A stretch of DNA of 64,000 nucleotides from Planctomycetota bacterium (GCA_023150535.1 JAKLKS010000001.1:8269-72268); one strand, 5' to 3'. Shown: positions 2,990 through 20,875, counted from the stretch's first letter. Numbers and translations: made by a program. The notes: generated by a model not told the origin, from the sequence alone.

Positions 2990-3009
2990 CGGGAGGCTCG
3001 ATCAACTCG
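2990..3009 (-). promoter_or_regulatory. Conserved 20-nt intergenic motif copy 1 (CGGGAGGCTCGATCAACTCG)
   Basis: Identical 20-mer also at 20854-20873; related copies at 8863-8886 and 11042-11061; lies ~40 nt upstream of start of gene 2603..2947. Confidence 0.5.
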
Positions 3010-3068
3010 GCGGGACCGTGAGACCGCCGCGCCCGGTCAGGACGCGGCGGCGGCGGCGCCGTGCGAAG

Positions 3069-3293
3069 TCAGGCCAGCGCCACGGGGTGCGAGGGGTCGT
3101 GCCGGTCGAAGGCGACGACCGCCTCGTAGAGGTGGCCGGCAGCGAGACAGCGTGCGCAGAGCGGCACGTCCACGACCTTGCCTTCGAGTTCCAGCCGGAG
3201 CCAGAACCCGCCCCCCACGAAGTCCTCCCGGCACCGCGCGCAACGGTGGCGGTTCCCGTAGGGGTTGAGGCCGAACTTCACCCGGAGGGCCAC
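3069..3293 (-). CDS. Small Cys-rich (zinc-finger-like) phage protein, 74 aa
   Basis: RHRCARC...PLCARC pattern. Confidence 0.45.
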   Translation of the reverse strand: MALRVKFGLNPYGNRHRCARCREDFVGGGFWLRLELEGKVVDVPLCARCLAAGHLYEAVVAFDRHDPSHPVALA

Positions 3294-3297
3294 CGGG

Positions 3298-3621
3298 CTA
3301 CTCCTCGGACCCCGGGTGGACCACGACGGGGCAGCCCCCGTCGTCGAGCTTCACCACCCCGCCCTCCCGGGCCGCGCGTAGGGCCGCGTCGTAGGCCCGG
3401 CGCGCGAAGATCCGGGCCTCGGCGTCCGCCCGGGCCGCGACCGGGTCGGTGTAGATCAGCGCGTTCGTGTGGCGCCCCTCGGGGTCGAACCCGCCCCGGA
3501 CCTGGGCCGCGAGGGTGCGGAGGTCCGTCTCGAAGCACACGTCCTCGATGACGCTGTTGGGCCCCGGGTCGTGGCAGACCCAGAACCTCTCGTGCCCGCC
3601 CCTCCTGTTCTGCGGCATCAC
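3298..3621 (-). CDS. Hypothetical phage protein, 107 aa
   Basis: ORF with ATGA-type overlap with upstream gene. Confidence 0.5.
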   Translation of the reverse strand: MMPQNRRGGHERFWVCHDPGPNSVIEDVCFETDLRTLAAQVRGGFDPEGRHTNALIYTDPVAARADAEARIFARRAYDAALRAAREGGVVKLDDGGCPVVVHPGSEE

Positions 3622-3848
3622 TCCTCCTCTCCGTCCTCGCGGACCTCGAACCCGTGGAAGATGGCCCGGGCGTAGAGGTCCCGGTGCCGCTGGATCCAGC
3701 GGGCCGACTCCTCGTAGCCCATCTCACCCGCGAGCCGGGCGACCGTGGGACGGTCCAGCATGTTCGTGAGCCCGGACTGCCGGACCGCCTCGATCCCCTC
3801 GAAGACCTCGCGGGTCACCCGGACCCGTCCCGACTTCGTCGCATCCAT
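3618..3848 (-). CDS. DUF5049-like small phage protein (76 aa)
   Basis: Start MDATKSG at 3848 with GGAGAGGAGG RBS; TREVFEGIEAVRQSGLTNMLDRPTVARLAGEMGYEESARWIQRHRDLY resembles a conserved phage family; N-terminal part of track ORF spurious. Confidence 0.55.
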   Translation of the reverse strand: MDATKSGRVRVTREVFEGIEAVRQSGLTNMLDRPTVARLAGEMGYEESARWIQRHRDLYARAIFHGFEVREDGEEE

Positions 3849-3889
3849 GTCGTCCTCCTCTCCGCAGTCGTCGTCTACCACCGGCCCGG

Positions 3890-4465
3890 CTACCGCAGCA
3901 CGGCCCGCAGGCGGTTCGACAGCGACCCGCCCTTGTTGCCGACCTTCTCCCGGGGGCCGACGTGCTTCTCGCAGAACGCGTAGGCGGCCTTGTTGATGGA
4001 CTCCTTGAGGGCGGCGAGCGGGATCACCTCGGAGGTGCCGGGCTTGCCCTTCACCGCGACCCGGACGCCCTTTTCGACCCGCTCGACCTCGAAGGAGACC
4101 TTCTCCGACACGTTGGCCCCGCGCCCCCCCTCGAACTCGCAGGGGACCTCGGCCTTCCGGCACGCCTCGCGGTAGGGCGCCACGGCCTTGCGGTAGGCGT
4201 CCTTGGCCCCGGCGACCATCGCCCGGGCCTTCTCGGTCATCTCGTTCGCCTCGGCCTCCGCCACCGCCAGCGCGGTCCTGGCCTCGTCCACCGGCTTCCG
4301 GAGCGCCTCGAGATCCACCGGGGGCGGGGCCTTCGTCTCGGCGGCCTTCGGCGCCTTCACCCGCTTCCCCTTCTTCCCCGTCGCGGCCGGCGCGGCCACC
4401 GTGGTCGTCGCGCCCTCGGCCGGCGCCGCGTCCTTCCTCGTCGCCTTTTTCTTCGCCTTCGCCAT
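3890..4465 (-). CDS. Lys/Ala-rich histone H1-like phage protein (192 aa)
   Basis: Start MAKAKKKATRK at 4465 with GGAGAGGAG RBS; N-terminal 60 aa KAP-rich low complexity then globular domain. Confidence 0.55.
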   Translation of the reverse strand: MAKAKKKATRKDAAPAEGATTTVAAPAATGKKGKRVKAPKAAETKAPPPVDLEALRKPVDEARTALAVAEAEANEMTEKARAMVAGAKDAYRKAVAPYREACRKAEVPCEFEGGRGANVSEKVSFEVERVEKGVRVAVKGKPGTSEVIPLAALKESINKAAYAFCEKHVGPREKVGNKGGSLSNRLRAVLR

Positions 4466-4515
4466 GATCGTCTCTCCTCTCCGGGCCTTCGCCCGGAACG
4501 TCGGAACCAGCGTCC

Positions 4516-4696
4516 TCACGCCTTCACCGCCTCGATGCCCCGGACCTCGGCGAGGTCCCCGTAGAGGGCACGGGCTTGGAGGAGCGCGTCCTTTCCGTCC
4601 GTGGCGTGGAGGTCGGGGACCCTCATCGCGAGGGTCTCGCCGTCCACGGCGACGCGGACGTACACCTCGAACCGTTCGAGCTGCGGGCGGGCCACG
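4516..4696 (-). CDS. Small hypothetical phage protein (60 aa, GTG start)
   Basis: C-terminal part of spurious ORF 4516..5412; GTG at 4696 preceded by GGAGG and overlapping stop of upstream gene. Confidence 0.35.
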
Positions 4697-4697
4697 G

Positions 4698-4925
4698 TCA
4701 GGCCTCCGTCACGCAGAGGTGGCCCGGCCCGTTTCCCTCCGCGTCCTGCCAGGCCTGGAGCACTACGCGCTGTCCCGCGCGCGTGCGGACCTCGACCTCC
4801 GCCACCACCCGCCCGTCGAACATCCGGGCCGGGCGGACCTCGACGAGGGTGGCGCCCGCCAGCCCGGCGTACTCCTGGCGGATGGCGTCCTCCTCGCGCT
4901 TCTCCCACTCCGTGGGTCGCGGCAT
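4698..4925 (-). CDS. Hypothetical phage protein (75 aa)
   Basis: Start MPRPTEWEK at 4925 with GGAGAGGAGG RBS. Confidence 0.5.
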   Translation of the reverse strand: MPRPTEWEKREEDAIRQEYAGLAGATLVEVRPARMFDGRVVAEVEVRTRAGQRVVLQAWQDAEGNGPGHLCVTEA

Positions 4926-5056
4926 CTCTTCCTCCTCTCCGGTCCGTGCGGGCCCCGACCGCCGGGACCTCGTGGACCGCTGGACATGAGGGCGAGGGCC
5001 GCCAGACACATCCACTTCCTTCCGCCGACTGGTCGGGGACCGCCGCTAGGGAGTTG

Positions 5057-6901: not shown

Positions 6902-6904
6902 GCG

Positions 6905-7123: not shown

Positions 7124-7132
7124 GGGCGCCCC

Positions 7133-7531: not shown

Positions 7532-7555
7532 GGGTCTCTCCTCCCTCTCCCCCGA

Positions 7556-8818
7556 CTACGCGGGCACGTCGAGCCCCACGAAGGGGCTGTAGGTCTGCCC
7601 GTCCTCCTGGGCGATGGGCCCGTCGAGCCACGGGGCCCCGTCCACGCTCTTGAAGGCCTTCACGACGGTCTTGTTCTGCTTGAAGAGCACGTGCTCGCTG
7701 GCGGCCACCGTGGTCTGGACCCCGTCCTTGATGAGGTAGTAGCTCGGCACGAGGAGTAGGACGTCGCCGAGCGACCCGAGCGCCGGGCTCCGGTAGTTCC
7801 GGACCACCTGGCGCCCGAGGAGAGTGGGCGGCGCCCCCGACCGCGCGTCCTCCTGCCAGATGAGGTGCCCCGCCGTGTCCTCCATCTGGCGGAGCTTCGG
7901 GATGACGCGGGGGTTCACGATCCAGACGGCCTCGCCGTCCTCGTGGAGCTCCGCCTCCATGTTCACGAGGTCGCCGTAGCCGACGTCGTTCGCGGCGGCG
8001 CGGTTGACCTTCTTCAGCGCCGGGGACGCCAGCGCCCCGAGCGGCCGCCCCACCCCGTTCCCCCGGAGGAACGCCACATCCTCCGCGGCGAGGATCCCCG
8101 CCCGGAGCATCCGCTCGATGAAGGTCGTCGCGGAGCGCCAGTTCCGGAGCAGCTTGTCCGTGACGACAATGTGGGCCGCGACCTCCTTCGGGCTCCAGCG
8201 GGACTCGCGGAGCTTGAGGCTCGTCTCGGGCTTCTCCGCCCCCTCCCGCACCCAGTCCACCTGGACCCCGCCGTAGATACTGGCGCCGGAGCCCTGGTTG
8301 AGGCTCGGGAGCACCAGGTCGGCGTCCGGGGAGTCCCCCGCGGGGACGACCACCGCGCGGGGCCGCATGATGGCATCCTGCGGGGCGACCTCGCGGATCG
8401 TGGGGTCGATGTCGTCGGGGATGGGGAGACCGCCGGACTCCCCGGTCCCCATCTCGAGGAGGGCCTGGACGCGGGGGTCCTCGGGCCGGAAGCGGGCGCA
8501 GTAGACGAGCTCCCCCACGCACTCGAAGCCGGGATTGGCGATGACGGGCTTCTTGCCCTTGGCGCTGGGGGCAGCCGGAGGGGGCGGGTCCCCCTCGGGG
8601 CGCGGCTTCACCGGCATGGGGTCGAGGCGGGCGAGCGCCGTGCGCTCTCCCTCCACGAACTCCGCCCGCTCGATCTGGCGGGCCAGCCCCTCGAGCTGGG
8701 CCCGCATCTCGGCGAAGGCCTTCTGCTCGGCCTCGTCGAGGGGCTCCTTCTCGGCGAGGGGGGCGAGCTTCTCGACGAGTTCCTTCCGGGCGCGCTTGAG
8801 CTCCAGCACCTTGGGCAT
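7556..8818 (-). CDS. Major capsid protein, HK97 family
   Basis: 420 aa with coiled-coil delta domain at N-terminus and HK97 MCP-like core. Confidence 0.9.
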   Translation of the reverse strand: MPKVLELKRARKELVEKLAPLAEKEPLDEAEQKAFAEMRAQLEGLARQIERAEFVEGERTALARLDPMPVKPRPEGDPPPPAAPSAKGKKPVIANPGFECVGELVYCARFRPEDPRVQALLEMGTGESGGLPIPDDIDPTIREVAPQDAIMRPRAVVVPAGDSPDADLVLPSLNQGSGASIYGGVQVDWVREGAEKPETSLKLRESRWSPKEVAAHIVVTDKLLRNWRSATTFIERMLRAGILAAEDVAFLRGNGVGRPLGALASPALKKVNRAAANDVGYGDLVNMEAELHEDGEAVWIVNPRVIPKLRQMEDTAGHLIWQEDARSGAPPTLLGRQVVRNYRSPALGSLGDVLLLVPSYYLIKDGVQTTVAASEHVLFKQNKTVVKAFKSVDGAPWLDGPIAQEDGQTYSPFVGLDVPA

Positions 8819-8862
8819 GGGGTCGGTCTCCGTGGCCTCCTGCGTCAGGACGAGTCTCGGGG

Positions 8863-8886
8863 CGCGGGAGGGCCGATCAAGTCAGG
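8863..8886 (-). promoter_or_regulatory. Conserved intergenic motif copy 2 (CGCGGGAGGGCCGATCAAGTCAGG)
   Basis: Shares GCGGGAGG-N2-CGATCAA core with copies 1,3,4; between protease stop and capsid start. Confidence 0.4.
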
Positions 8887-9743
8887 CGGAACACGTCCAG
8901 GATCCGCCGGCGGGCGTCCCGGGAGAGCCCGGGGGCATGGGGCGGGGTCTCCTCGTCGGGAAGGGGCCGCTCCACCCGCGGCGCGGCGATCTCGGCGGTC
9001 CGAGGGAGGGCGGGGAGCGGGCCCTGCCCGCCGGGGGGCTCCTCCGCGGTGGCCCCGCCGACCCGCGCCGCGAGGCGCTCCGGCACCCGCTTGAACCGCT
9101 CGAGGCCGAACACCGCCGCGGCCTTCTCCGGCTTCTCCGTGCCGTCCGCGAACCCCTCCGCCACCGCCTCTTCGGCGGTCATCCACCACTCCCCACCCGC
9201 GTCCGCCACGCGCTGGGCCAGCGTGGCGGCCCGCCGCCCCGTCCGCCGGGCGTAGGTCGCGAGCATCGCCGACCACGCCTTGTCCAGCGTCTCGGCCTGC
9301 CGGCGGAACTCCTCCGCGTCGCCGAGTACCGCGGTCCAGGGCCGGTGGACCATCAGCATCGCGTTCTCCGCCACGATGGTCTCGTCCCCGGCCAGGGCCA
9401 CGAGGGACGCGATGGAGGCAGCCAGTCCGTCCACGTGGACCGTCACCTTCCCCGGGAACCGGGTGAGCGCGTTGTAGATGGCGATGCCCTCGAAGACGTC
9501 GCCGCCGTTGGAGGAGAGCCGGACGTCGAGGGCGGGCACGTCCGCCAGCGCGCGGAGGTCCTCCACAACCCGGCGGGCCGGGATGCCCCCGAGGAAGTCC
9601 TCCCCGAGGATGTCGTAGAGGTAGAGCGTGGCCGTGACGGGCCCGGGCTCGACGACCTGGGCTCCGTCCTGCTCCCCGGCGGGGATGGCGGCCCACACCT
9701 TCTCCACGGCGTAGCCCTTCCCGTCCTTCAGCGCGGTGGTCAT
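8877..9743 (-). CDS. Prohead protease (ClpP/S14-like head maturation protease)
   Basis: Start MTTALKDGKGYAVEKV at 9743 with AAGGAGA RBS and ATGA overlap with portal stop; VRLSSNGGDVFEGIAIYNAL and MVHRPW motifs of ClpP family. Confidence 0.85.
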   Translation of the reverse strand: MTTALKDGKGYAVEKVWAAIPAGEQDGAQVVEPGPVTATLYLYDILGEDFLGGIPARRVVEDLRALADVPALDVRLSSNGGDVFEGIAIYNALTRFPGKVTVHVDGLAASIASLVALAGDETIVAENAMLMVHRPWTAVLGDAEEFRRQAETLDKAWSAMLATYARRTGRRAATLAQRVADAGGEWWMTAEEAVAEGFADGTEKPEKAAAVFGLERFKRVPERLAARVGGATAEEPPGGQGPLPALPRTAEIAAPRVERPLPDEETPPHAPGLSRDARRRILDVFRLT

Positions 9744-11023
9744 GCGGGGGTCTCCTTCTGCGGCAGGGTGGTGGCCTGGTCCGTCGGCGCGGCCGGTGCG
9801 ACCGGCGCGGAGGTGCCCACGGGAACGAGGTTTCCGGGCCTGACGCGGTGCTTGCCGAGCCCGTCCGGCAGAGCGTTGAGCTCTTCCAGCTCGCGGACCT
9901 CGTCGAGGTCGTAGACCCCCCTGTCCAGCATCTGCCCGTAGAACTGCGCCCGGGCCGTGAGGTCCCCGCGTAGGAGTGCGTTCAGGTTGTGCCGGGCGTA
10001 GTAGCGGCCCCTCTCCGAGGGGAGGAGGAGGTCGCGGGTGATGGTCGCCTCGAACCGCACGAGCCAGGGCCGAAGCGTGTTCTGCACGAACTCCAGCGCC
10101 GCCTGCTCCATGTTCGCGCGCGGCTGCGCGGTCGTGTCCCCCAGCATGTGGAGGGGGACGCGGAAGATGCGGGCGATCTCGGCCACCTGGAACTTCCGCT
10201 GGTCGATGAACTGGGCGTCGTCGAGGTTCATCCCCACCTTCTCGAACTTCGCCCCCGCCTCGAGGATGACCGTCTTCCCGGCGTTGACGGCGCCGGCGTA
10301 GGCCGCATCCCAGGAGGCCTTGAAGCGCTGGTATTCGGGGTCCTCCATCACGGCCGGGTGGGTGACGACCCCGGCCACGCGGGCGCCGTTCTTCATGAAG
10401 GACGCCTGCGCCTGCTCGAGGACCAGGGAGATGCCCATCGACTCCCGACAGAGGCCGATGGGGCTGAGGCCCGTCACACCGTTCCACGAGAGGCCAGGGA
10501 TGCGCCACACCTCCCTGGGCCGGAGGGTCCGCGGCTTCACCCCGGGCTCGTTCACCTCGACCAGGAGGGGGCCGCCTGGGGTCTCGCGGTAGTCCCGCGT
10601 GTGAGCCGGGAGGAGGGGCCAGAGTTCCCGCACGTCCCCGCCGCCGTCCCGGACCACCTGCGCCCGGGCGTTGCCGCGGAGGAGGACGTGGGCGCAGAGG
10701 GTCTCCCGGAGGGACTGAGCGGTGATCTCCTCGTTGGCCTCGACGTGGAGGACCTGGTCGAGGGGGTGCTCGTCAGCGAGGCGCCGATCCCCGTTCGCCT
10801 GCTTCTCGTAGACCCGAAGCGGCAGCGTGCTGATGGTCTCGGCGATCACCTTCACACTGGAGAGGACGGCCGTGATGCGAAGCGCTGAGTCGTCGGTGAC
10901 GGAGACGCCCGAGGCCGTCGGGGCGGAGACTCCGGGGTACTTCCAGAAGGTCTCCGGGGGCTCGTCCGAGATCACCCACCCGAGGAGTCGGCGGGCCAGG
11001 CGGCGGATGGGACCGGGGGGCAC
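9740..11023 (-). CDS. Phage portal protein, HK97 family
   Basis: 427 aa; ...FQVAEIARIFRVPLHMLGD... portal motif. Confidence 0.9.
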   Translation of the reverse strand: MPPGPIRRLARRLLGWVISDEPPETFWKYPGVSAPTASGVSVTDDSALRITAVLSSVKVIAETISTLPLRVYEKQANGDRRLADEHPLDQVLHVEANEEITAQSLRETLCAHVLLRGNARAQVVRDGGGDVRELWPLLPAHTRDYRETPGGPLLVEVNEPGVKPRTLRPREVWRIPGLSWNGVTGLSPIGLCRESMGISLVLEQAQASFMKNGARVAGVVTHPAVMEDPEYQRFKASWDAAYAGAVNAGKTVILEAGAKFEKVGMNLDDAQFIDQRKFQVAEIARIFRVPLHMLGDTTAQPRANMEQAALEFVQNTLRPWLVRFEATITRDLLLPSERGRYYARHNLNALLRGDLTARAQFYGQMLDRGVYDLDEVRELEELNALPDGLGKHRVRPGNLVPVGTSAPVAPAAPTDQATTLPQKETPA

Positions 11024-11041
11024 GTCCTACAGCGTGGGGGC

Positions 11042-11061
11042 GCGGGAGGATCGATCCATCC
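11042..11061 (-). promoter_or_regulatory. Conserved intergenic motif copy 3 (GCGGGAGGATCGATCCATCC)
   Basis: Just upstream of portal start. Confidence 0.4.
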
Positions 11062-11191: not shown

Positions 11192-13702
11192 CTACTTCCT
11201 CCTCCGCCTAGCCTGCTTGGTCACGTCCTCGTGGAGGTGGGTCGGGGAGAGCCTGAGTTCATCGAGCAGGAGCGCGACGTCCTTTCGGCTCCAACCTCCT
11301 GGCTCCCGCGCCGCGAGTCTGCCAACCAGCTGGGTGGCACGGTCCTTGAGCTCAGCGAGCCCCTCGTGCTCGATGGTCCGCAGGTGGTCGATCGGATCGA
11401 GGTCGGCCAACGCCGTGTCGATGACCATCACGGGCGTCACCGGTGCGCCAGGGTAGTTCCTCTCGAACCAGGAATGGCTCAACGTAATCTGCCCCATGTC
11501 GCGCTTGCAGATTGCATCCGTCTCAGACCGGCTCTTGCACTCGATCACCCAGCTCATGTCTCGCCAACGCCACAAGTTGTCGGGGCCGTCACCTTCATCC
11601 CGCTCCGGTCGCTCGCTCTGCGCGCCCAAGACGGCCCCTAAGAATTCCGTGGCGTCCTCGAAGGCCACATGTCCGACGCCAAAGTACAGGTCCATGAGTC
11701 GGCTGGCCGCCTCCGCCACGGCTCCCTGGCCATCGGCGAATTGCCCGTACCATTTCAGGACGTTGTCGGCCGCAGAGGCCAGAGCGGCATCTCTCGGCCT
11801 CAGGGCTGTGACCTCTGTAGGCCGGAGCAGTCGATGTGAGATCGCGTACGCCTTTCGCTGGATACGCATGGCCTCATCTGGGTCCGATCCGACCGTCATC
11901 CTGCCGAGGACCTGGAGGTATCGAGCGTAGGAGGGGCCCGAGTCCAGCTTCGCCTTGTTGAGCGCCTTGCTCAATGTGTCGACTGCCGCCGGCGCATCTC
12001 CATCGATCGCCTGAACGAGCGACCTGCGTTCAGCATCGGCAAGATTCACCGCCACCGGATCGCCACCCTTCGGAGGGTTGGGGACCCGGTTCCGCACTCT
12101 CTGGATGTAGATGTCCTTCCACACGCCCGCTCGGCGAAGGCAGTTGTCGACGAGCTCGTCGAAGGCCTCTTCGCCCGACGCACTCTCCGCTCCGCGGGCC
12201 AGATCTATGAGCTCCTTCCCGAGAGTAAGTTGCGCCTGGACCTCGTCACTCATCTGCGATCGAACGTCGGTCTTCGAGACGAAGCTCGCCAGCGCTTCTC
12301 CACCAAGGACGACGACCGCATAGTCGGCACTCGATCGCACCGCGCGTCCCATTCCCTGCTCGATGCGATAAACAACGCGGTTCCGGACCCCACCGTCCCT
12401 TGGACTGCTGCTACTGTCCATCTCATCTGTAAGGCCCTGCCCCCGGGGGATTCCATCGAGGACCAGGATCCGGCAAGCGTCGTCAGGCAGATCGATGCCG
12501 TCGAACCTCTGCGCAAAGGCGGCGAATCGTAGATCCCCCTTACGAAGGTCTCTTACGGCAGCAGCCACGTCGGCGTGGCCAGCTGGCGCGGCAGCACCAT
12601 GGGCCTCCCACTCCTTGGCTTCAGCCGCACTTGAGCAGAGGACGACCACGGCATCCTTCTCCGAGCGAGATGCGGCCCACATCATGAGCCACTCGCGGTT
12701 CATTTCTCGGTCGATCAGAGTAGGCGCCAGGATCATCCGCTCGCCAATGCCCGACTCCTTGGAGGGGGTAATGGGCCCCAGAGCCGCTGCGACTTCGCAC
12801 CCGAGTTCGCGGACCAGCACGGAGTCATCCGAGAGGGTCCCCGACATGAACAGCCGATGAGCCGCTTCATGGTATGGGCGGATCTCGCGGACAAGCGGGA
12901 CCTCTGTAGATAGCTCGACTACTCCGCGCCCGATCACGACCCGCAAGAATGGCAGAGATGCCCTGATCAGTGGCCAACGGAGATCTCGATCCGCTCCTGT
13001 TGCGTACTTGCGAACGAGGGCTTCGACCCGGTCACCCAGCTGGGGAAGGTGCCAGTAGGGGACCTCGATAAGAACCCTGGGGTCGCCCTCGCGAATGTCC
13101 CGCCACGCACTGCGAAGGTGCTTCACCATCACTCCATCGATCTCGCCGATGAAGTGCGTCACTCCCTCCGGGTCGGAGATCCGAAGAGTGAAAGCGTCTC
13201 GCACCTCCTCGACCCCCGCATGGGCATCGTCGAGAACCAGTGCCGTGGGAACGATCCCGACGTCTTGGCGGCTGAACGTCGTACGGGCATTGAACAACTT
13301 GTCGTAGGTGCAAACGATCACGGCTTGGCCAGAGAGACAATCGGCGTGGGGGTGAGGTTCTCCCGACGCGTAGGGGTGGGCGTCTAGGCCGAGGCGTCGA
13401 GCCTCCACCAGGACCTGGTCAGCGAGTTGGAGATTGGGGCATAGGTAAACGCCGACCCCCTGGGTTGCAGCCATGTGGGCCTTGAGGTACAGAAGCCCGA
13501 CGGTCGACTTCCCAGACCCCGTGGGCATCTTCAGCACTAGGTCGCGCTCGTCCCGCCGCTTGTGAAGCTCCTTCAGCGCCGCGACTTGGAACGGCCGAAG
13601 GTTGACGTGCGAGGTCTTCCGGTCGAGGCCCTCGAACAGCTGGAGTGGATCCGTCGGTTGGCCGCCGCCACGCTTCGAGAGGAGCTTCCGCAGGTCAACC
13701 AT
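11192..13702 (-). CDS. SF2 DEAD/DEAH-box helicase fused to C-terminal putative PD-(D/E)xK nuclease domain (836 aa); moron in packaging module
   Basis: Walker A LKMPTGSGKSTVG, DExH-like LVLDDAHA, motif VI QGMGRAVRS; C-terminal WRDMSWVIECKSR. Track ORF 1433 aa but N-terminal ~600 aa overlaps terL in another frame; start MVDLRKLL at 13702 with GGAGGA RBS (alternative 13765). GC visibly lower than neighbours. Confidence 0.8.
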   Translation of the reverse strand: MVDLRKLLSKRGGGQPTDPLQLFEGLDRKTSHVNLRPFQVAALKELHKRRDERDLVLKMPTGSGKSTVGLLYLKAHMAATQGVGVYLCPNLQLADQVLVEARRLGLDAHPYASGEPHPHADCLSGQAVIVCTYDKLFNARTTFSRQDVGIVPTALVLDDAHAGVEEVRDAFTLRISDPEGVTHFIGEIDGVMVKHLRSAWRDIREGDPRVLIEVPYWHLPQLGDRVEALVRKYATGADRDLRWPLIRASLPFLRVVIGRGVVELSTEVPLVREIRPYHEAAHRLFMSGTLSDDSVLVRELGCEVAAALGPITPSKESGIGERMILAPTLIDREMNREWLMMWAASRSEKDAVVVLCSSAAEAKEWEAHGAAAPAGHADVAAAVRDLRKGDLRFAAFAQRFDGIDLPDDACRILVLDGIPRGQGLTDEMDSSSSPRDGGVRNRVVYRIEQGMGRAVRSSADYAVVVLGGEALASFVSKTDVRSQMSDEVQAQLTLGKELIDLARGAESASGEEAFDELVDNCLRRAGVWKDIYIQRVRNRVPNPPKGGDPVAVNLADAERRSLVQAIDGDAPAAVDTLSKALNKAKLDSGPSYARYLQVLGRMTVGSDPDEAMRIQRKAYAISHRLLRPTEVTALRPRDAALASAADNVLKWYGQFADGQGAVAEAASRLMDLYFGVGHVAFEDATEFLGAVLGAQSERPERDEGDGPDNLWRWRDMSWVIECKSRSETDAICKRDMGQITLSHSWFERNYPGAPVTPVMVIDTALADLDPIDHLRTIEHEGLAELKDRATQLVGRLAAREPGGWSRKDVALLLDELRLSPTHLHEDVTKQARRRRK

Positions 13703-13788
13703 GGGGATCCTCCGCGCACCAGTGAGAACTGGAGTGTACTGGCCTGACCTGCGCCGAGGAAGCATGGTCCTTCGCCCCTGGGTGACTA

Positions 13789-15666
13789 TCAGACGGTGCG
13801 CACTCCTCGAGTGGCGTATGGAGACGCGGGGCCACTGGGCAGAACCATGAGTCGCGAGAGCGCCGTCACCGTAGCGACGACCCCGTCGATGCGCCTCTTC
13901 GGATTCGCTTTCACGGGCCGGATGTTCTCGTTCTCGTCCTCCTTCACGGCGGCGTTCGAAACGCACCAGGACATCGCGCGGTTCCCGTCGTGGTGGACCC
14001 GGCGCGCGCGGGTGAGGGCGTGGAGGACCTTGCACGAGGTGGAGAGCGTCTTCGGACCCTGCCGGACCTCTACTGGCTGGAGGCCCGCCTTCTCCAACTG
14101 CAGCGCGAACTGGAGCGCGTTCCAGGGGTCGTAGCCGATCTCCTTCACGCGGTACCGCGGGGCCAGCTCGTCCACGATGGTCCGGAAGATGAAGTCGTAG
14201 TCCACGACGCTCCCGGGAGTGGTGCGGAGATGGCCCTCCCGGACCCATACCCCGTAGTCCACGCCGTCCTCCTTGGACCGCTCGTGAAGGCGCTCCTCGG
14301 GCATCCAGAGGAAGGGGAGCACGGCCAGGTCGTAGTTGATGGACAGCACCTTCTTCACCGGGGCACCCGCGGCGTCGAACTCGACCGCCTGGACCGTGGG
14401 GACCTTCTCCCCCTCGAGACGGCTCTCGGGGAGGCGGAACACCAGGACGAACGCCGTGAGGTCCGTCGTCGAGGAGAGGTCGAGCCCGCCGGCGACGGGA
14501 CGCTTGACAAGGGACTCGGGCCCGGGCAGCGACGGGCAGTCCTTCCACCACTCGATGGGGATCCAGACCTCGTTCGTCCGGGTCCAGATGTTGAGGTGGA
14601 GGCGCTTGAAGGCCCCCTGCTTGCGAGGCTCCGCCTGGGCCGCCCGGCACTCCGCCTCGAGGTAGTCCCGCTTCACTGTCACCCCGAGGGAGGGGTTTGC
14701 CTTCGCCCAGATCCGCGGGTCCCGCCAGTCGTCCCCCTCCTTCGCCTCGAAGATGACGGGGAGGTAGGTCTCGTCCTCGATGAGCCCCGACATGACGCGC
14801 TTGGCGTACTCGTACTCCTCGTAGCAGACCGAGTCCTGATCGTCGCCGGCCGTGGTGATGAGGACCACGATGGGCTGGCGCCGCGCGGCGATGCCCTTGG
14901 ACAGTGTGTCGTAGAGGTCGCGGTTCGGCTGGGTATGGAACTCGTCGAAGAGGAGCGCGTGGATGTTCGGCCCGTGGCGGCCCTTCACCTCCGAGGAGAC
15001 CACCTTGAAGGAGGAGCGGGTCTCCGGCACCACGATGGCGCGGCGGTAGGTCTCGGACCTCGCTGCCAGGCGCCGGCTCGCAGCGTTCATGTCGCGGGCC
15101 TCGTTGAACACGATCCCCGCCTGCTCGCGGTCGGCCGCCGCGGCCACGATCTCCGCTCCGGGCTCGCGGTCGCAGTGGAGGAGGTAGAGGCCGAGGCCGG
15201 ATATGCAGGCCGACTTCCCGTTCTTCTTCCCGATGACGATGAACACCTTCCGGAACCGCCGGAGGCCGTCCGAGGCCCGCTTCCACCCGAAGAGCGGCCT
15301 GACGAGGAGCTCCCGCTGCCAGTCGAGGAGGTCGAAAGGCTGCCCCGCGAACTCCCCCGTCAGGTGCCGGAGGAAGGTCGGGAAGAAGTCCACCGCCCGG
15401 GCGGCCTCCTCCTCGTCGAAGAAGTAGCGTCCCCCGTGGTCGTGGACGGGGATGGTGACCGCGGGCCAGCGCTCGAGGGCCAGGGCGTTCCACGGGGACA
15501 CGGGGGCGGTCTGATTCACACCGACCAAGATCGGGGCGAGCGAGACTCGTGCCACTCCGGTAAGGTCATCCTCCTGCGGCGCCGGAGCCATCCGACCCGA
15601 GGAATGCCCTTCAGTGGTACTCTCGGAGTTGTTGACGTGCTGGCGGAGGGCCGGAGATTGGAGCAC
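13789..15666 (-). CDS. Terminase large subunit
   Basis: 625-aa ORF with ATPase and nuclease halves (..VFIVIGKKNGKSA.., LLFDEFH, ..EIGYDPWN..); start may be internal ATG at 15591. Confidence 0.85.
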   Translation of the reverse strand: MLQSPALRQHVNNSESTTEGHSSGRMAPAPQEDDLTGVARVSLAPILVGVNQTAPVSPWNALALERWPAVTIPVHDHGGRYFFDEEEAARAVDFFPTFLRHLTGEFAGQPFDLLDWQRELLVRPLFGWKRASDGLRRFRKVFIVIGKKNGKSACISGLGLYLLHCDREPGAEIVAAAADREQAGIVFNEARDMNAASRRLAARSETYRRAIVVPETRSSFKVVSSEVKGRHGPNIHALLFDEFHTQPNRDLYDTLSKGIAARRQPIVVLITTAGDDQDSVCYEEYEYAKRVMSGLIEDETYLPVIFEAKEGDDWRDPRIWAKANPSLGVTVKRDYLEAECRAAQAEPRKQGAFKRLHLNIWTRTNEVWIPIEWWKDCPSLPGPESLVKRPVAGGLDLSSTTDLTAFVLVFRLPESRLEGEKVPTVQAVEFDAAGAPVKKVLSINYDLAVLPFLWMPEERLHERSKEDGVDYGVWVREGHLRTTPGSVVDYDFIFRTIVDELAPRYRVKEIGYDPWNALQFALQLEKAGLQPVEVRQGPKTLSTSCKVLHALTRARRVHHDGNRAMSWCVSNAAVKEDENENIRPVKANPKRRIDGVVATVTALSRLMVLPSGPASPYATRGVRTV

Positions 15667-15969
15667 ATTCCATACCTCGCGTTCCTTCCCTACCTACCGC
15701 TGGAGAGGCCGGTCGTGTTCTCGAACTGGTGGCTGGGCCCGGCGGCGAGGTTCAGGAGACCCTGGGCGAGCCCCGAGTTCCACACGGCATCACGGCGGTT
15801 CCTCACCAGGTTCCGGACTGCAGACGGGCGGCGAGTGACTAGCCCTGCGATCCTTGCCCATCGTGAGCGGGGGGCCGATGGCCGCCTCCCAAGTGCACAT
15901 GAAGTTGAGATCCTCGAAGCCACGATCCTATTCGCCGTCCTTGACGCCAACCCGGAATGGTCTGAGGAA

Positions 15970-16824
15970 GTGGATGCGAGGAGGGTCGCCACCTCGGACA
16001 ACGCAGATCTGTTCCTCTGGCCCATCGATGTCGGCGGCGGCGTCACGATGGGGCCTCACGGACTGATCGTCCAGCACATCACCGGAGGACTCCGATTCAC
16101 GCGACGAGGATTTCGAGTGCCGGGCCCTCTGGCCCTCTCGCTGCCACGCAAGCTGACGCTCGACGCGGACCTCATGGGAGCGCTAGTCGGCGCGATGTCG
16201 ATGGCAGGGCCACGGCAGCCAGAGTCCGATGCTGCGCGGATGCTCCGGGCGATCCGCTGGTACGGCAAGGCGTGGAGGAACGACCTGAAGCTCGACTGGG
16301 GCGAGCGGGTCGTGATGCTCAAGACCGCGTTCGAGACGCTCCTCAACGAGGACGACACCCGGATGGCCGCACGCAAGATCGAGAGGCTCTTCTGCCGTGT
16401 CCTCGGAACCCGCGACACGGACCTCCTGTGGAAGCCGAAGGAGCGTAGGCGGGTCGTGACGTACACCAAGCTGAGCGGCAATACTGCTCATGAGGCGCGC
16501 ACGGACCTGATGGACTGGTGCATCACGTTCGGTGAGGCGCGCAACACCGTCGTCCACAAGGGGCTCTCACCCGAGATGATGTACGCCTGCCCTGGAGGAT
16601 CTGCGTACGACGGTCACCTGTTCCACACTGGTTCCCGGCTCTTCCGCGAGGCGGTGAAGGTGCGGCTGGAGGACGTGGGATTCCCAATGATGTGGGCGAG
16701 CGCGCGCGTGCGACACGGCGTCCGCCTCTTCACGCGAATCCGGCAGAGACTCGCCCGTTCGCGCCGAGGGGGTTGTAGCACCCGAACTTCAGAGGCAGTG
16801 ACGGTGCGGACGCCGAGACCCTGA
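15970..16824 (+). CDS. HEPN-motif hypothetical protein (putative RNase/abortive-infection-like); start uncertain (GTG 15970 or ATG 16048)
   Basis: Plus-strand coding in C-terminal third of track ORF 13990..16824; lower GC from ~15890; C-terminal DWCITFGEARNTVVHKG contains canonical R-N-x3-H HEPN signature; embedded between terL and terS on opposite strand. Confidence 0.5.
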   Translation: MDARRVATSDNADLFLWPIDVGGGVTMGPHGLIVQHITGGLRFTRRGFRVPGPLALSLPRKLTLDADLMGALVGAMSMAGPRQPESDAARMLRAIRWYGKAWRNDLKLDWGERVVMLKTAFETLLNEDDTRMAARKIERLFCRVLGTRDTDLLWKPKERRRVVTYTKLSGNTAHEARTDLMDWCITFGEARNTVVHKGLSPEMMYACPGGSAYDGHLFHTGSRLFREAVKVRLEDVGFPMMWASARVRHGVRLFTRIRQRLARSRRGGCSTRTSEAVTVRTPRP

Positions 16825-16829
16825 GTTCG

Positions 16830-17342
16830 CTACCCCGCCCCGAAGAACCGCTCGTCGAGGTCGGACTCGCCGGGCGCCACGCCCCGCGCCCCGCCCGCGG
16901 CGTGGACCCGGGATCGGCTCGACGGCGTCATCCCGAACTCCACGAGGAACGCCCGCATCTGCTCCAGGGCCTTGTTCGCGATGGCGAGGTAGGGCGAGTG
17001 GGCGAGGTAGCCCGAGGGGGCCTTCACGACTGCCCCGTACTGGCGGACCTTCTCCTCGGCGTCCAGGAGCCGGGCGTAGGCGAGGCAGTAGCCCATCAGT
17101 GCCGGCCCGTCGATCTCGGTCAGGAGCCCGGCCTTGAAGAGGATCCTCCCCATCCGGTGCCACTCGCGTCGGGACGCTCCGTCGAGCACCTTGGGGCAGG
17201 CCGGCATCCGCCGGCGGGGCTCGGGCTCGGTCTGGTTGAGCGGCCGGTGCCCGGGATTCCCCGCGAGGACCTTGAGGAGCGTGGGCTTGGGCTTCCGGCC
17301 GCCGCCGGGCGCGCGGGACCTACCCACACGCCACCTCCGCAA
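16830..17342 (-). CDS. Terminase small subunit (P27 family)
   Basis: ...GYCLAYARLLDAEEKV...YLAIANKALEQMRAFLVEFGMTPSSR... typical P27 TerS. Confidence 0.8.
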   Translation of the reverse strand: MRRWRVGRSRAPGGGRKPKPTLLKVLAGNPGHRPLNQTEPEPRRRMPACPKVLDGASRREWHRMGRILFKAGLLTEIDGPALMGYCLAYARLLDAEEKVRQYGAVVKAPSGYLAHSPYLAIANKALEQMRAFLVEFGMTPSSRSRVHAAGGARGVAPGESDLDERFFGAG

Positions 17343-17517: not shown

Positions 17518-17537
17518 CCAGCAGAGGAGGCGGCGGA

Positions 17538-18950
17538 TCACGCGGCCCCCTTCGCTGGGACGCGTTCCGCCTTCTTCCCGGTGAACTGCTCCCACCGCGC
17601 GACGATGACGTCGGTGTAGAGCGGGTCGATCTCGATGAGCCGCGCATTCCGCCCCATCTGCTCAGCGCCGATGAGCGTGCTGCCCGAGCCCCCGAAGAGG
17701 TCGAGCACCGTCTCGCCCGGGCGCGAGCAGTACTTCATGGCGAGCGTCGCTAGCTCGACGGGCTTCTCGGTAAGGTGGACCATCTTCTGCGGCGAGACCT
17801 TTTTCACGCTCCAGACGTCGGTCGCGTTGTTGATGTCGGGGGCGAAGTAGTGGGCGGCGCCTTCGCGCCATCCGTAGAACGCCCACTCATGGTTCCCCAT
17901 GAAGTCCTTCCGCGTGAGGACGGGGTGCTCCTTCACCCAGATGATGGCCTGGGAGAAGTAGAGCCCAGCCTCGACGAGCGCGGGCGGGTAGTTGGCGATA
18001 TTGCTGTACCCGCCCCAGATGAAGAACCCCCGCCCCGGGAGGAGGACGCGGGCGGCGTTCCCGAACCACGCGCGGAGCTTCTCCCGGAACGCCTCGTCGG
18101 ACATGAAGTCGTTCTCGAGGGGGCGGTCCTTCGCCCGCATCCGCTTGTGGGTGGGCTTCGACTTCTCCGGGTGGCGGTCGAGGTCGGCCGCCTGGTGGTG
18201 CATCGTGCCCTGGAAGGAGGAGAGGCCGGCGGCGATGGCGTTGTTCGAGCGCGGCTCGACGCGGACGTTGTAGGGCGGATCGGTGTTCAGAAGGTGGACC
18301 GGCCCGCCGTCCAGGAGCCGGTCGAGATCCTCCGGGCTCCCCGAGTCGCCGCACAGGAGCCGGTGTTCGCCGAGGATCCAGAGGTCGCCGCGGCGCGTCG
18401 TCGGCGTCTCGGGCGGCTCGGGGATGTCGTCGGGGTCGGTCTCCCCCTCCTTCGCCTCCGCGCCGATGCCGGACTTCTGCGCGAGGTCATCGAGCATCGC
18501 GCGCAGCGCGGCGTCGTTGACGGTTGCCTGCGCGAGGAGGGCCTCCAGCTTGGCCGGGTCGGCCGTCGCCATCCCGGCGAGGGGGTCGAGCGACGCGAGG
18601 ACGAGCGCCTCCTCGGCCTCGTCGAGGTCCACGTAGACGACGGGGATCGCGGTCTCGCCGCGCGCCCGAGCGAGTTCCACGCGGAGGTGCCCGTCCACGA
18701 GGTGGCCCGTGCGGCGATTGACGACGACGTCCTGGACCCATCCGACCTGGTCGAGGAGGCCCGCGAGCGCCGCTTGCTGCGCTGGCGGATGCCCGCGCCA
18801 GTTCCTCGGGTTGGCGACGAGCGCCGCCGGGGAGGCCTCGCCGCGGTCCACGATGCGGGAGCGCCAAGGACCGGGCGAGGGCGCCGCCGGAGCGGCCTTC
18901 CGCTTGCGGCCCTTCCGGGTGGCGGCCTGGCTCACGACCAGGCCTCCCAC
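17538..18950 (-). CDS. ParB-like nuclease domain fused to DNA N6-adenine/N4-cytosine methyltransferase
   Basis: N-terminal ParB/Srx-like domain, C-terminal MTase with TDPPY motif and FGGSGST AdoMet motif; common terminase-adjacent phage gene. Confidence 0.85.
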   Translation of the reverse strand: MGGLVVSQAATRKGRKRKAAPAAPSPGPWRSRIVDRGEASPAALVANPRNWRGHPPAQQAALAGLLDQVGWVQDVVVNRRTGHLVDGHLRVELARARGETAIPVVYVDLDEAEEALVLASLDPLAGMATADPAKLEALLAQATVNDAALRAMLDDLAQKSGIGAEAKEGETDPDDIPEPPETPTTRRGDLWILGEHRLLCGDSGSPEDLDRLLDGGPVHLLNTDPPYNVRVEPRSNNAIAAGLSSFQGTMHHQAADLDRHPEKSKPTHKRMRAKDRPLENDFMSDEAFREKLRAWFGNAARVLLPGRGFFIWGGYSNIANYPPALVEAGLYFSQAIIWVKEHPVLTRKDFMGNHEWAFYGWREGAAHYFAPDINNATDVWSVKKVSPQKMVHLTEKPVELATLAMKYCSRPGETVLDLFGGSGSTLIGAEQMGRNARLIEIDPLYTDVIVARWEQFTGKKAERVPAKGAA

Positions 18951-19311
18951 GAGGAGCCGCAGGCGAGGCTAAGGACGCGGCCCGCCGCGTAGGGGTCCGG
19001 GCCGCGGGCGTCCTCGGGGTGGAGACAGGCGCCCTCGGCGCCTGGGCCGGGGGGCCCCCCCCCTCCCTTATTTCGCGGGCGCACGCGCGAGATTGCGCGC
19101 CCGGTACAGGAGGCGAGACCTGTCACAAACCGCTCCCCCTCCCCGGTGCCGGTTTCGCCGTCTGCCAGGCTGGCACCGTCGGTGGCGAAGCCGACTCCCG
19201 CGCCGTCGGGCGCCCCGTTGCCACCCGTGGCGGCCGGCGCGGCCATGGCCACCGGGGCGACGCCGTTGTGGATCGCGCCACCCGTCGCGCCACGGGCGCC
19301 CTCGGGCGCGG

Positions 19312-20460
19312 TCACGGGCGGGCCTCCCCAACCGTAGGGCTCGGCGTCTCTGCCACGCCGAGGTCCCGGAGGAATCCCCCCAGGACCTCGGGGAGCTCCG
19401 TGAGGGCCTGGCGCACGCCGGCGTCCGCGGAGGCGAAGCGCTTGCGGTCCGCGTCGTCCCGAGGGTTCGAGAGGTAGGACACCAGGGAGTCACGGAGGCG
19501 GCGGGCGGAGCGCAGGATCTCGGAGAACTCGTCGCGCTCGGGTGGCTCAGCCAGTTCGCGGAGGTCGTCGAGAGACTCGACGCCCTTGTCGAGCGCCTCC
19601 TCGATCTGGCTGCGCGAGAGCCGGATCTCGCGATTGAGGACGGCGCGGCGGGCGTGAGGAACTGCGCGGTCGAGGGCGTCGAGGGCCTCGGCGAGGGCGG
19701 CGGCGCGGCGGACGGTCTTCTCCCCGACACCCGTCTCGGAGGCGATCTTCGCGCTCGTCTCGTTTGCCCGTCCGTTCCGGTCACTTTGACCGGAACGCAC
19801 CTTGAAGCCCGTCTGCTTCGTCGCGTTGTACTGCCGCCCCAGGTAGTACATCGCCCAGGCGGGCGTGAGGGAGCGCCGCGCCCGCTGCGCCGTGAGGAAC
19901 CACGCCAGCGCCGCCGCGCGGTCCGGGAACGACCGCTTCTCCACGCGGAACGCGATGCCGAGCTCGCGGCAGAGCTCGAGGCGGTGGTGGCCATCGAGGA
20001 GGACGTCCTGCTCCTGCCAGACGACGAGCGCCTCGCGGCACCCCTCGGCGCGGAGCGACTCCCGGAGCGCCGCCTCGGTGGCCTCGTCCATGGGGGCGGA
20101 GAGCTCGGCGATCTCCCGGTCGATGCGGGGCGAGGAGCGGTCGGCCTTCTCCTTCGGGGCGTAGGGCACCTGGTCGGAGCCGGTGACGCGGGTCCAGGCC
20201 TTTTCGCCCTTCATCTGCGCGTAGACCCGGGCGCGCTGTGGAGGAGTCGTCGGGAGATCGAAATCGAGGAGCCCCCGGGCGAGGGACTCGACGACGTCCT
20301 TCGTGCCCGCGAGCACGCTCGCCGGGACGCCGGGCTCCGCGGTGACGGTCTCGGGGTCGTCCTCCTCGGCGTCGAGCGCGGCCTCGAGGAGCGCCGATCC
20401 CGCGGAGGTCCTCCACGCGAGGTCGAGGTCCGTCAGGGCCACGGCGTAGCGGACCTTCAC
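19312..20460 (-). CDS. ParB-like nuclease domain protein (382 aa)
   Basis: GTG start VKVRYAVAL at 20460 with GGAGG RBS; VVWQEQDVLLDGHHRLELCRELGI ParB/Srx motif; N-terminal 102 aa of track ORF spurious. Confidence 0.7.
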   Translation of the reverse strand: MKVRYAVALTDLDLAWRTSAGSALLEAALDAEEDDPETVTAEPGVPASVLAGTKDVVESLARGLLDFDLPTTPPQRARVYAQMKGEKAWTRVTGSDQVPYAPKEKADRSSPRIDREIAELSAPMDEATEAALRESLRAEGCREALVVWQEQDVLLDGHHRLELCRELGIAFRVEKRSFPDRAAALAWFLTAQRARRSLTPAWAMYYLGRQYNATKQTGFKVRSGQSDRNGRANETSAKIASETGVGEKTVRRAAALAEALDALDRAVPHARRAVLNREIRLSRSQIEEALDKGVESLDDLRELAEPPERDEFSEILRSARRLRDSLVSYLSNPRDDADRKRFASADAGVRQALTELPEVLGGFLRDLGVAETPSPTVGEARP

Positions 20461-20834
20461 GCGGGCCTCCGGACGCGACGCCCGAAGCGCCCGTCCTCGC
20501 GGGCGGTCTTGCGGGAGTGGCAGGAGGCACATGCGGCCTGGAGGTTCCGGGGGTCGTGGGTGCCGCCCCGGGCCAGGGGGAGACGGTGGTCCACCTGGGT
20601 CGCGGGGACGGAGAGGCCGCGGGCGGCGCACTCCATCTCGCAGAGCGGGTGCCGACGGAGGAAGGCGTCGCGGATTCGCTTCCACGCCGCGTCGTAGCCC
20701 CGGCGGGAGGGCGAGCCCCGGGTGGAGTCGATCTCCGCCTGGAGCGCGCGGTCGTGCTCGGGGCAACGGGCGCCCCGGCGGACGAGGGCCCCGCAGCCCT
20801 GGACGACGCAGCCGTGCGGAGGTCGATGACCCAT
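20457..20834 (-). CDS. HNH endonuclease (phage-type, terminase-associated)
   Basis: CxxC...HDPRNLQAACASCH motif; start ATG 20834 preferred because conserved motif copy 4 lies just upstream (alternative ATG 20879). Confidence 0.65.
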   Translation of the reverse strand: MGHRPPHGCVVQGCGALVRRGARCPEHDRALQAEIDSTRGSPSRRGYDAAWKRIRDAFLRRHPLCEMECAARGLSVPATQVDHRLPLARGGTHDPRNLQAACASCHSRKTAREDGRFGRRVRRPA

Positions 20835-20853
20835 GGCCTGCAGCGTCGAGGAC

Positions 20854-20873
20854 CGGGAGGCTCGATCAACTCG
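20854..20873 (-). promoter_or_regulatory. Conserved intergenic motif copy 4 (identical 20-mer to copy 1)
   Basis: CGGGAGGCTCGATCAACTCG identical to 2990-3009; different reading frame relative to flanking ORFs than copy 1, so conserved at DNA not protein level. Confidence 0.5.
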
Positions 20874-20875
20874 CG

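Follow-up and report, generated by a model that had tools for sequence, protein, structure and literature searches.

What does a short sequence that recurs ahead of the late genes of a prophage do there? The question is raised by a 64,000-nt stretch of DNA from a Planctomycetota bacterium (GCA_023150535.1 JAKLKS010000001.1:8269-72268), which we call the window and number from its first letter. The window has a G+C content of 72%, and its positions 1 to ~36,600 are an HK97-like temperate phage integrated beside a tRNA-Arg, with its genes on the minus strand. A first, sequence-only reading had noticed a recurrent 20-nt motif upstream of four late genes and proposed a late promoter or operator, possibly served by one of two phage-encoded sigma factors. 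We found that the conserved element is 28 nt, longer than the 20-mer, and spans a -35-like to a -10-like hexamer, and that it stands before the same genes in related prophages. The best explanation of these observations as a whole, including the involvement of an extracytoplasmic function (ECF) sigma factor, is that the motif is the core of the late-promoter set of this phage, a reading that we hold to be highly probable from its sequence features.

A pattern search of the window recovered two exact copies of the 20-mer CGGGAGGCTCGATCAACTCG, at 2990-3009 and 20854-20873 (0.01 expected by chance), as well as the two reported variants, and no similar element in the other ~60 kb. The shorter core CGGGAGGNNCGATC matched exactly at 2990, 8865, 11043 and 20854, in every case on the plus strand and hence antisense to the genes. 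All four sites are intergenic, the one at 8865 overlapping the TGA stop of the protease gene (8877-8879). The distance from core to start codon is 20 nt for the HNH gene (20834), 20 nt for the portal gene (11023), 47 nt for the capsid gene (8818) and 43 nt for gene 2603-2947, which bears out the earlier placement of the motif 20-50 nt upstream of minus-strand late genes, in intergenic sequence or straddling a stop. Aligned without gaps over ~34 nt, the four sites read T(T/G)GATC, G(A/G)NCCTCCCG, N6 and (G/C)A(C/G)(A/G)CT. The element is accordingly laid out as T(T/G)GATC, GA plus a box GCCTCCCG, 6 nt and (G/C)ANNCT, with 16 nt between the -35-like and the -10-like hexamer and the same register at 4/4 sites. 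A 28-nt weight matrix, built from the window's four sites and 11 portal-upstream sites of relatives, had strong hits in the 64 kb at these four sites only (33-39 bits, against a maximum of ~18 bits in shuffled sequence), and a generic pattern gave 5 hits in the window vs 0.22 expected.

Each of the four predicted late promoters lies on the minus strand. P(HNH) (20842-20869) consists of TTGATC (20869-20864), GAGCCTCCCG (20863-20854), 6 nt and GACGCT (20847-20842), with 7 nt from GACGCT to the HNH ATG at 20834. P(portal) (11031-11058) is made up of TGGATC, GATCCTCCCG, 6 nt and CACGCT, followed after 7 nt by the portal GTG at 11023. P(capsid) (8853-8880) reads TTGATC, GGCCCTCCCG, 6 nt and GAGACT; its first hexamer contains the protease stop TGA (8879-8877), and 34 nt with a GGAG lie between its last hexamer and the ATG at 8818. 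P(tail) (2978-3005) reads TTGATC, GAGCCTCCCG, 6 nt and CACACT, and is separated by 30 nt with GGAGGA from ATG 2947 of the tail gene (2603-2947), next to which the major tail protein gene (2139-2588) is found.

We then compared the window's prophage (W) with related prophages (L-numbers denote these loci). The relatives retrieved by the portal protein, with portal identities of 56-66%, are prophages in Planctomycetota metagenome-assembled genomes (MAGs); public records list some identical proteins under other phyla, and we therefore take the host assignment from the MAGs. In more than 15 related prophages the element stands before the same four genes, though the proteins are ~55-70% identical, and a targeted look upstream found it before the HNH, portal, capsid and tail genes in every relative where those genes could be examined. 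At the portal gene, 11 relatives (L002-L005, L008-L012, L015 and L018) have the same register and 7 nt from hexamer to ATG, and the site is also present in L006 and L013. Homologous HNH sites with a start 6-7 nt past the hexamer occur in L005, L006, L009, L010, L012, L018, L115, L122-L128 and L134, homologous capsid sites in 16 related loci and sites at the homologue of the tail gene in 11. The matrix, although trained mainly on portal sites, also found those before the capsid gene, the tail homologue, the HNH gene and the L018 tape-measure gene. Loci reached through a zinc-finger protein encoded beside P(HNH) again carry the element between the zinc-finger gene and HNH, with the start 6-7 nt past it. 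The strand bias is pronounced: 32/32 matrix hits in relatives fall on the gene-sense strand, and a generic regular expression applied to 416 kb (window plus loci) gave 58 sense hits, a few of which are a conserved coding stretch inside the portal gene, and 1 antisense hit. Across lineages the consensus is TTGAAC or TGGAAC at -35 (10 and 4 of the relatives' 32 sites, respectively) and GA(C/T)GCT at -10, with A2 and T6 kept. The spacer is 16 or 17 nt in all relatives, the longer form belonging to one lineage (L001, L007, L008, L013, L017).

These features are those of a bipartite promoter of the sigma-70 family, in which two hexamers lie 16-18 nt apart; all four sites have this arrangement, and every site is intergenic or over a stop codon and points in the gene sense. 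None of the sites was detected by a scan for the E. coli consensus, indicating that they are not canonical sigma-70 sites. The proposal of a late promoter is favored by orientation, -35/-10 geometry, conservation at the same genes and a start distance of 6-7 nt. Anatomy, conservation, strand bias, geometry and the concerted evolution of the box are observed; that the sites drive transcription, where it begins and which factor reads them are inferred. A terminator scan made no call at the sites, and an Rfam scan found nothing there, a tRNA being its only hit. Two hairpins lie on the minus strand nearby: a G+C-rich one of 12 bp at 3023-3051, just upstream of P(tail) and past gene 3069-3293, which has no U-tract and may end the preceding transcription unit, and a second G+C-rich one at 20872-20902, just upstream of P(HNH), which overlaps the 3' end of the zinc-finger gene.

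The spacing between hexamer and start codon provides further information on where transcription may begin. The HNH and portal genes start exactly 7 nt past the -10-like hexamer with no ribosome-binding site, and the portal start at GTG 11023 is forced because its frame opens only at 11026. Comparable spacings of 7 nt at TerL and 6 nt at a 454-aa gene of L118, both described below, join the 7 nt of HNH and portal in the window and ~13 portal and ~19 HNH sites in relatives; 6-7 nt leave no room for a ribosome-binding site. Where the start codon is further off, GGAG or GGAGG sits in the interval, in the window's capsid and tail genes at a customary spacing from the ATG. Independent gene calls begin at the predicted codons of the L115 HNH gene (GTG 13937) and the L118 454-aa gene (9629). 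Two leaderless genes beside two with leaders are expected if the fixed point is a transcription start ~7 nt past the hexamer and are unexpected for a translation signal. These distances fit a prediction that the HNH, TerL and portal mRNAs are leaderless. Mycobacteria reportedly have promoters for leaderless mRNAs whose -10 adjoins the open reading frame (ORF). For leaderless genes of Deinococcus, a -10 motif 6-7 bp before the ORF has been established experimentally (PMC12340547). The elements described here share with the leaderless promoters of Deinococcus-Thermus a hexamer with A2 and T6, its position 6-7 nt before ATG or GTG and the lack of a ribosome-binding site (PMC12340547). They differ in the hexamer itself, (G/C)ANNCT here vs TANNNT there, in always being accompanied by a conserved -35 and box, and in being leaderless at only some of the sites.

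A probable, weaker promoter, P(TerL), lies at 15527-15554 on the minus strand, where TGGCACGAGTCTCGCTCGCCCCGATCTT is followed after 7 nt by an in-frame GTG at 15519. Its box, GTCTCGCT, is unlike that of the other sites, and its -35 position holds TGGCAC. We grade this site as probable and not certain because its matrix score of 14.8 bits is within the range of shuffled sequence, although it is the fifth of the window's five hits to the generic pattern. In relatives TerL comes directly after TerS and starts at the residue homologous to GTG 15519; in the window a 1.3-kb insertion (15519-16830, minus strand), with ORFs 15690-16046 and 16056-16481 that have no family hit, lies between TerS and TerL. 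Judging from these homologues, the true TerL start is most likely GTG 15519 and not ATG 15591, and the site at 15527-15554 probably restarts transcription after the insertion. To the left of the window there is a sixth site, read from an identical phage copy (L118 9595-9622, TGGAACGAGGCTCCCG...CATCCT), followed after 6 nt by the GTG of the 454-aa gene, which is located past the tail-fibre genes. As a separate observation on TerL, the loci L130-L132 (14084-16894) encode a 936-aa form with a Hom_end (homing endonuclease or intein-like) domain.

Together the sites head the packaging module (HNH), TerL, the portal-protease pair, the capsid and head-tail genes, the tail module and the gene past the tail fibres. 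Along the direction of transcription the gene order begins with an ECF sigma factor (33886-34521) and five unknown genes, followed by a PD-(D/E)XK nuclease, an AAA_24 ATPase, a helicase, a VRR-NUC nuclease and a primase (21280-23874). Next come the Cys-rich zinc-finger protein (20876-21274), HNH (20457-20834), a ParB-like protein, a methyltransferase (17538-18950) and TerS (16830-17342), and past TerS two unknown ORFs, TerL (13789-15519/15591) and an 865-aa helicase (11192-13789). Downstream of the helicase are the portal (9740-11023), protease (8877-9743) and capsid (7556-8818) genes, and beyond the capsid the head-tail genes, the tail gene (2603-2947), the major tail protein (2139-2588), chaperones and the tape-measure protein. 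Two of the sites follow cargo. One cargo is the TerS-TerL insertion and the other, at the TerL-portal junction, is the 865-aa DinG/DEAD-like helicase (minus strand, 63% G+C), a full-length match to PDC-S28, a candidate defence family of PADLOC (E 4e-219). Cargo at the same junction in relatives includes AbiEi/AbiEii in L115 (18795-20761), and the late operon appears to have a hotspot for defence genes or cargo at this point.

We propose that each copy of the element would act as a promoter of the sigma-70-family type, with a -35-like hexamer that is T(T/G)GATC here and TTGAAC or TGGAAC among the relatives, then GA, a lineage-specific box of 8 nt and, 16 nt past the -35, a -10-like (G/C)A(C/T)NCT. 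Transcription would start ~7 nt past the -10, which at HNH, TerL and portal is the start codon itself; capsid and tail would have a short leader with a GGAG or GGAGG ribosome-binding site. The promoters would restart late transcription at the head of each module, notably after cargo inserted in the late operon, and their position behind cargo would make late expression independent of insertions in the operon. The ECF-type sigma factor of the early operon (33886-34521) would direct RNA polymerase to the sites, possibly helped by the zinc-finger protein.

The candidate sigma factor is a 211-aa protein encoded on the minus strand by the first gene of the early leftward operon. It matches Pfam Sigma70_r2, r4_2 and Sigma70_ECF, phrog_1740 and TIGR02937, and an identical copy is annotated as a sigma-70 family factor. 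The combination of a non-canonical late -10 with an ECF-like (G/T)GAAC -35 is what leads us to it as the factor that may direct polymerase to the sites. ECF promoters have GGAAC or TGAAC at -35, a spacing of 16-17 nt and CGT or CGAC at -10, and their spacer can modulate selectivity. The elements may resemble them at -35, where most relatives have (T/G)GAAC, and do resemble them in a CGAC that often overlaps the -10-like hexamer, in a -35-adjacent sequence that matters and differs between cognate systems, and in the presence of an ECF sigma gene in the same element. They differ in having GATC at -35 in 4/5 sites of the window and 15-16 nt from AAC to CGAC, in a -10 whose A2 and T6 are more like groups 1-3, and in lacking an autoregulatory copy and a recognisable anti-sigma gene. 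Before the sigma operon lies TGCTACAAT, a canonical extended -10 (34675-34683, minus strand) that is conserved in L116 and L107 and is presumed to be the early promoter; its -10 (TACAAT) is canonical, unlike the late one (GAYGCT). Downstream of it, in the ~150-nt leader of the sigma operon (34522-34790, minus strand), the blocks GAAGAATGTG, CCGTTACCTC and CCGAAGGAAG are conserved with L116 and L107, and this may be a regulatory leader or operator region.

Phage-encoded sigma factors are familiar from T4 (gp55) and SPO1 (gp28 and gp33/34). The 7-11 and phiEco32 phages have their own sigma with middle and late promoters, and phage promoters also precede the sigma gene (PMC4331800). The present phage resembles them in an early sigma-70-family factor, a phage-specific promoter repeated before structural clusters and a host-type early promoter; it differs in that no promoter copy precedes the sigma gene, one relative lacks the sigma, the sequences are unrelated, and the link between sigma and promoter is here a prediction.

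ECF-like sigma genes are present in 8/10 lineages whose early region is at least partly readable (W, L125, L128/L018, L131/L001, L133/L005, L134, L013 and L008). All of these except W carry a second, divergent ECF-like family of ~205 aa, which an ECF profile recognizes with an hhalign probability of 96% (E 1.8e-9) and in two members of which Pfam Sigma70_r2 exceeds the cutoff. Its genes lie at L125 717-1442, L128 6874-7491, L131 5273-5902, L133 3090-3758 and L134 5727-6335; these five proteins are ~205-240 aa and 31-58% identical to one another, and the family takes the place of the window's sigma type in most relatives. From these profile matches most members of the phage family encode a group-4 sigma, and their -35 has the ECF-like (G/T)GAAC form. 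In L004 there is only a protein with a Zn-ribbon and sigma region 4, at the edge of the locus. This 218-aa protein, found at L004 983-1636 and L125 5356-6009, has a CxxC...CxxC zinc ribbon and an RpoD-like region 4 (Pfam Sigma70_r4, E 5e-12); its gene is directly upstream of the zinc-finger gene, and it could be a sigma-region-4 mimic or adaptor.

The earlier suggestion of two phage sigma factors stands for one of them. The other, a 265-aa protein (30269-31066, minus strand), has at its C-terminus at most a helix-turn-helix resembling sigma region 4; it has no Pfam or PHROG hit and no PDB relative, its match to SigZ region 4 is weak (E 1e-3, 18.8 bits vs a cutoff of 168), and hhalign against sigma profiles gave <1% probability. 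A 273-aa gene (33078-33899, minus strand) overlaps the end of the sigma gene by 14 nt, a position typical of anti-sigma factors. As an anti-sigma it was rejected: it has no HxxxCxxC motif, and its PADLOC hits are weak (Type I specificity subunit, PDC-M19A).

Several observations weigh against the reading of the sites as late promoters served by the phage sigma. The late -10-like hexamer departs from the canonical form in having G or C at position 1; the AAC-to-CGAC spacing is 15-16 nt, and 15 nt is short for typical ECF promoters; and P(TerL), as noted, scores no higher than shuffled sequence can. No matrix or pattern hit was found near the sigma gene (34522-34790), so the autoregulatory copy typical of ECF systems is absent. 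The L115/L003 phage has the same box and architecture, yet no sigma-like ORF lies between its integrase and HNH. The window's sigma is very divergent from the ~205-aa family, and still the promoters share a consensus. Finally, sigma type and box type are not associated: W and L005 have the same box with different sigma families, and L115/L003 have none. The idea that the phage sigma reads the late promoters, plausible given an ECF sigma in the prophage, is therefore weakened by L115/L003, and we keep it as plausible.

The earlier reading had also connected the GATC of the motif with the phage methyltransferase. This connection did not survive the comparison: GATC occurs in 2/32 of the relatives' sites, the sixth site carries GGAAC in its place, and the prophage shows no depletion or enrichment of GATC (observed/expected 0.89, and 1.01 in the host part). 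Within the window the -35 is of the GATC type at 4/5 sites, TerL having TGGCAC, and the site left of the window has TGGAAC. The window's GATC at -35, also seen in L015, L122 and L124, may reflect its different sigma.

The box, the 8 nt after the -35 and GA, varies by phage lineage and is near-identical across the sites of one phage. It is GCCTCCCG in W, L003, L005 and L015, CTCTGAC- in L002 and L009-L011, GTCGCCCG in L018, GTCTCG-- in L012 and CCCTCCG- in L001, L007, L008 and L013; CTCTGACA and GTCGCCCG are variants alternative to GCCTCCCG. Box identity is 0.80 within a phage vs 0.60 for one gene compared between phages, and a permutation test left the observed value unmatched (0/10,000 shuffles). 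No within-phage effect was seen for the -35, the -10 or the remaining spacer in the same comparison. The box thus evolves in concert within a phage, which argues for a trans-acting reader encoded by the phage rather than by the host.

A candidate for this reader, as box reader, late activator or co-factor, is the protein encoded immediately upstream of P(HNH) (20876-21274, minus strand), a Cys-rich protein of 132 aa with several probable zinc fingers. Its gene is at the same position in 13/13 loci examined and in L122-L134, even where early genes are divergent or missing. In the alignment 10 Cys are invariant, and the structural model has a pLDDT (predicted local distance difference test) of 83; compared with the PDB, the model had no significant match, and the profile searches, Pfam and PHROG among them, gave no family hit. 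Similarities among the zinc-finger proteins agree with box type better than do those of the neighboring HNH gene. The proteins of W, L115 and L005 are 60-69% identical to one another vs <=60% to those of other box types (56-60% to the partly aligned L012 and <=56% to the rest).

These properties support the strongest competitor of the phage-sigma reading, namely that the host sigma reads the late promoters and the zinc-finger protein activates them by binding the box, either between the two hexamers or next to the -35; the phage sigma would then serve elsewhere, for example at middle genes or in tuning the -35 preference. The zinc-finger gene is immediately upstream of the first late promoter in every locus, and its similarity groups the phages by box type, which the HNH gene's does not. 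L115/L003 have the box and the zinc-finger gene without a sigma, and W and L005 share a box with different sigma families. Against this, DNA binding is only predicted for a protein with no structural relative or family hit, its co-variation with the box is confounded by phylogeny and by linkage to P(HNH), and the W protein lacks a ~16-residue helical segment found in most homologues. Activators inside a 16-nt spacer are moreover unusual. MerR-type activators need a 19-20 nt spacer and dyad symmetry, and there is no dyad symmetry here. We regard this explanation as a serious possibility that is nevertheless unlikely.

Late activators offer precedents for such a protein. P2 has four late promoters and the zinc-finger protein Ogr, Mu has four and the protein C, and the RinA/ArpU family are also late activators. 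The likeness is that several late promoters share one conserved element and that the first late promoter has just upstream of it, by HNH and terminase as with RinA, the gene of a small protein that probably binds zinc. The conserved element here spans -36 to -7, unlike an upstream dyad at about -55, and no homology to Ogr/Delta, C or RinA was detected for the zinc-finger protein, whose function is suggested here by analogy. A promoter of the P2 Ogr or Mu C type proper was rejected: the sequence before the -35 contains no conserved stretch or dyad, and the zinc-finger protein matches no family or structure. A functional analogy may still hold.

A bolder form of the late-promoter reading would treat the box as a private address. 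A novel multi-zinc-finger protein, with or without the phage ECF-type sigma, would read the 8-nt box between -35 and -10, such that co-resident prophages each switch on their own late genes. Two box types do occur together in each of two MAGs (Bin_16R and LakeFargette). We offer this as a speculation, and rate it below host-sigma reading with zinc-finger activation.

The same concerted evolution is also what immunity and operator specificity produce, and the co-residence of two box types in single MAGs would suit an operator, GAGCCTCCCG being bound by a phage repressor or lysogen silencer that would repress late genes before induction. Dyad symmetry is absent from the box, the early or immunity region beside the integrase has no copy, and the fixed register of the box inside the promoter suits a reader associated with polymerase. 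Late genes of temperate phages are, in addition, usually kept silent indirectly. An operator role is for these reasons improbable.

Less probable still is that the repeats are module-boundary or recombination sequences for cargo exchange with no regulatory role. Sites do flank variable cargo (PDC-S28, AbiEi/AbiEii in L115, the TerS-TerL insertion), the TerL site has a foreign box type, and L003 has a duplicated promoter with a 5' portal fragment in its cargo region. There, at L003 5233-5260, a 5' piece of portal (residues 8-46, 51% identity) comes after an additional promoter copy (TGGAATGAGCCTGCCG...), between TerL and the real portal gene; the extra copy may be the scar of a recombination at the promoter. 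Recombination leaves the 58-to-1 sense orientation, the -35/-10 architecture and the 6-7 nt start distance unexplained, and it does not account for the sites of the capsid and tail genes, where variable cargo was not seen. Recombination at the sites is more likely a by-product of repeated promoters.

The explanation that we consider least probable of all, an RNA-level element in which CCUCC(C) pairs with a downstream GGAGG in read-through transcripts or acts as a processing or translation signal, draws on the minimum-energy folds at capsid and tail, which pair the box with the downstream GGAGG stretch, and on CCTCC being the anti-Shine-Dalgarno core, but there is no shared fold (z = -2.75, +0.76, +1.11 and -1.33, the first for the whole 136-nt stretch that includes the hairpin near P(tail)), the boxes of other lineages lack CCUCC at the same positions (CTCTGAC, GTCGCCCG), the distance from hexamer to start varies from 7 to 34 nt in the window while the -35 to -10 register is fixed, and the HNH and portal sites have no downstream Shine-Dalgarno sequence to sequester.

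Other candidates were rejected. Most sites begin with TTG and not with the TGG of a sigma-54 promoter; where TGGCAC occurs (the L009 portal site and window position 15554) the next GC is 9 nt away, not 10, and the conserved downstream hexamer and start distance misfit the -12/-24 geometry. Start-associated sequences of the kind found in mycobacteriophages were dismissed on the hexamer-to-start distances of 7, 7, 30 and 34 nt and on the position of GGAG/GGAGG outside the motif. An intrinsic terminator or structured RNA was discarded as well, given no common fold, mixed z-scores and no Rfam hit at the sites.

The boundary of the prophage is marked by a tyrosine integrase (35166-36554, plus strand), near which lies an HTH_17 excisionase-like gene (34789-35133, plus strand), and tRNA-Arg(CCT) is at the prophage edge (36587-36663). 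ARAGORN reported a further 93-nt tRNA-Arg(ACG) at 63663-63755 (plus strand), which is below the Rfam gathering score and is probably a false call or an atypical gene. Single MAGs carry more than one related prophage (loci L001-L017 and L130-L132): Bin_16R has 5 loci, the LakeFargette MAG 4 and CBDFJG 3-4. The CBDFJG loci have identical zinc-finger genes, and some copies adjoin transposases and host genes without an early region and could be elements that are defective or domesticated. A 24-kb megablast against a phage collection gave no match. Among IMG/VR queries, the helicase returned 80 loci in which it was the sole common gene, of no use for gene context; the sigma returned no relatives and the primase one distant locus, and an exact 14-mer scan gave single chance matches only. 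A metagenome scan with the zinc-finger alignment gave 6 loci only, mostly short.

The promoter family is undescribed, although phage-specific late promoters are well known as a phenomenon; literature searches naming Planctomycetota found no paper on the promoters of their phages. Hardly any transcription signals are known in Planctomycetota or their phages, and this family would give five or six predicted starts per phage. It would also correct gene starts, such as that of TerL at 15519, and would offer a sigma-promoter pair from a phylum with few genetic tools. The promoter copies that follow cargo would show how a late operon tolerates hotspots of defence genes. That the box evolves in concert in co-resident prophages suggests that related phages are insulated from one another in their regulation, and the private-address idea, if true, would add a late-gene activator of a new class and provide natural promoter-reader pairs that are orthogonal to one another.

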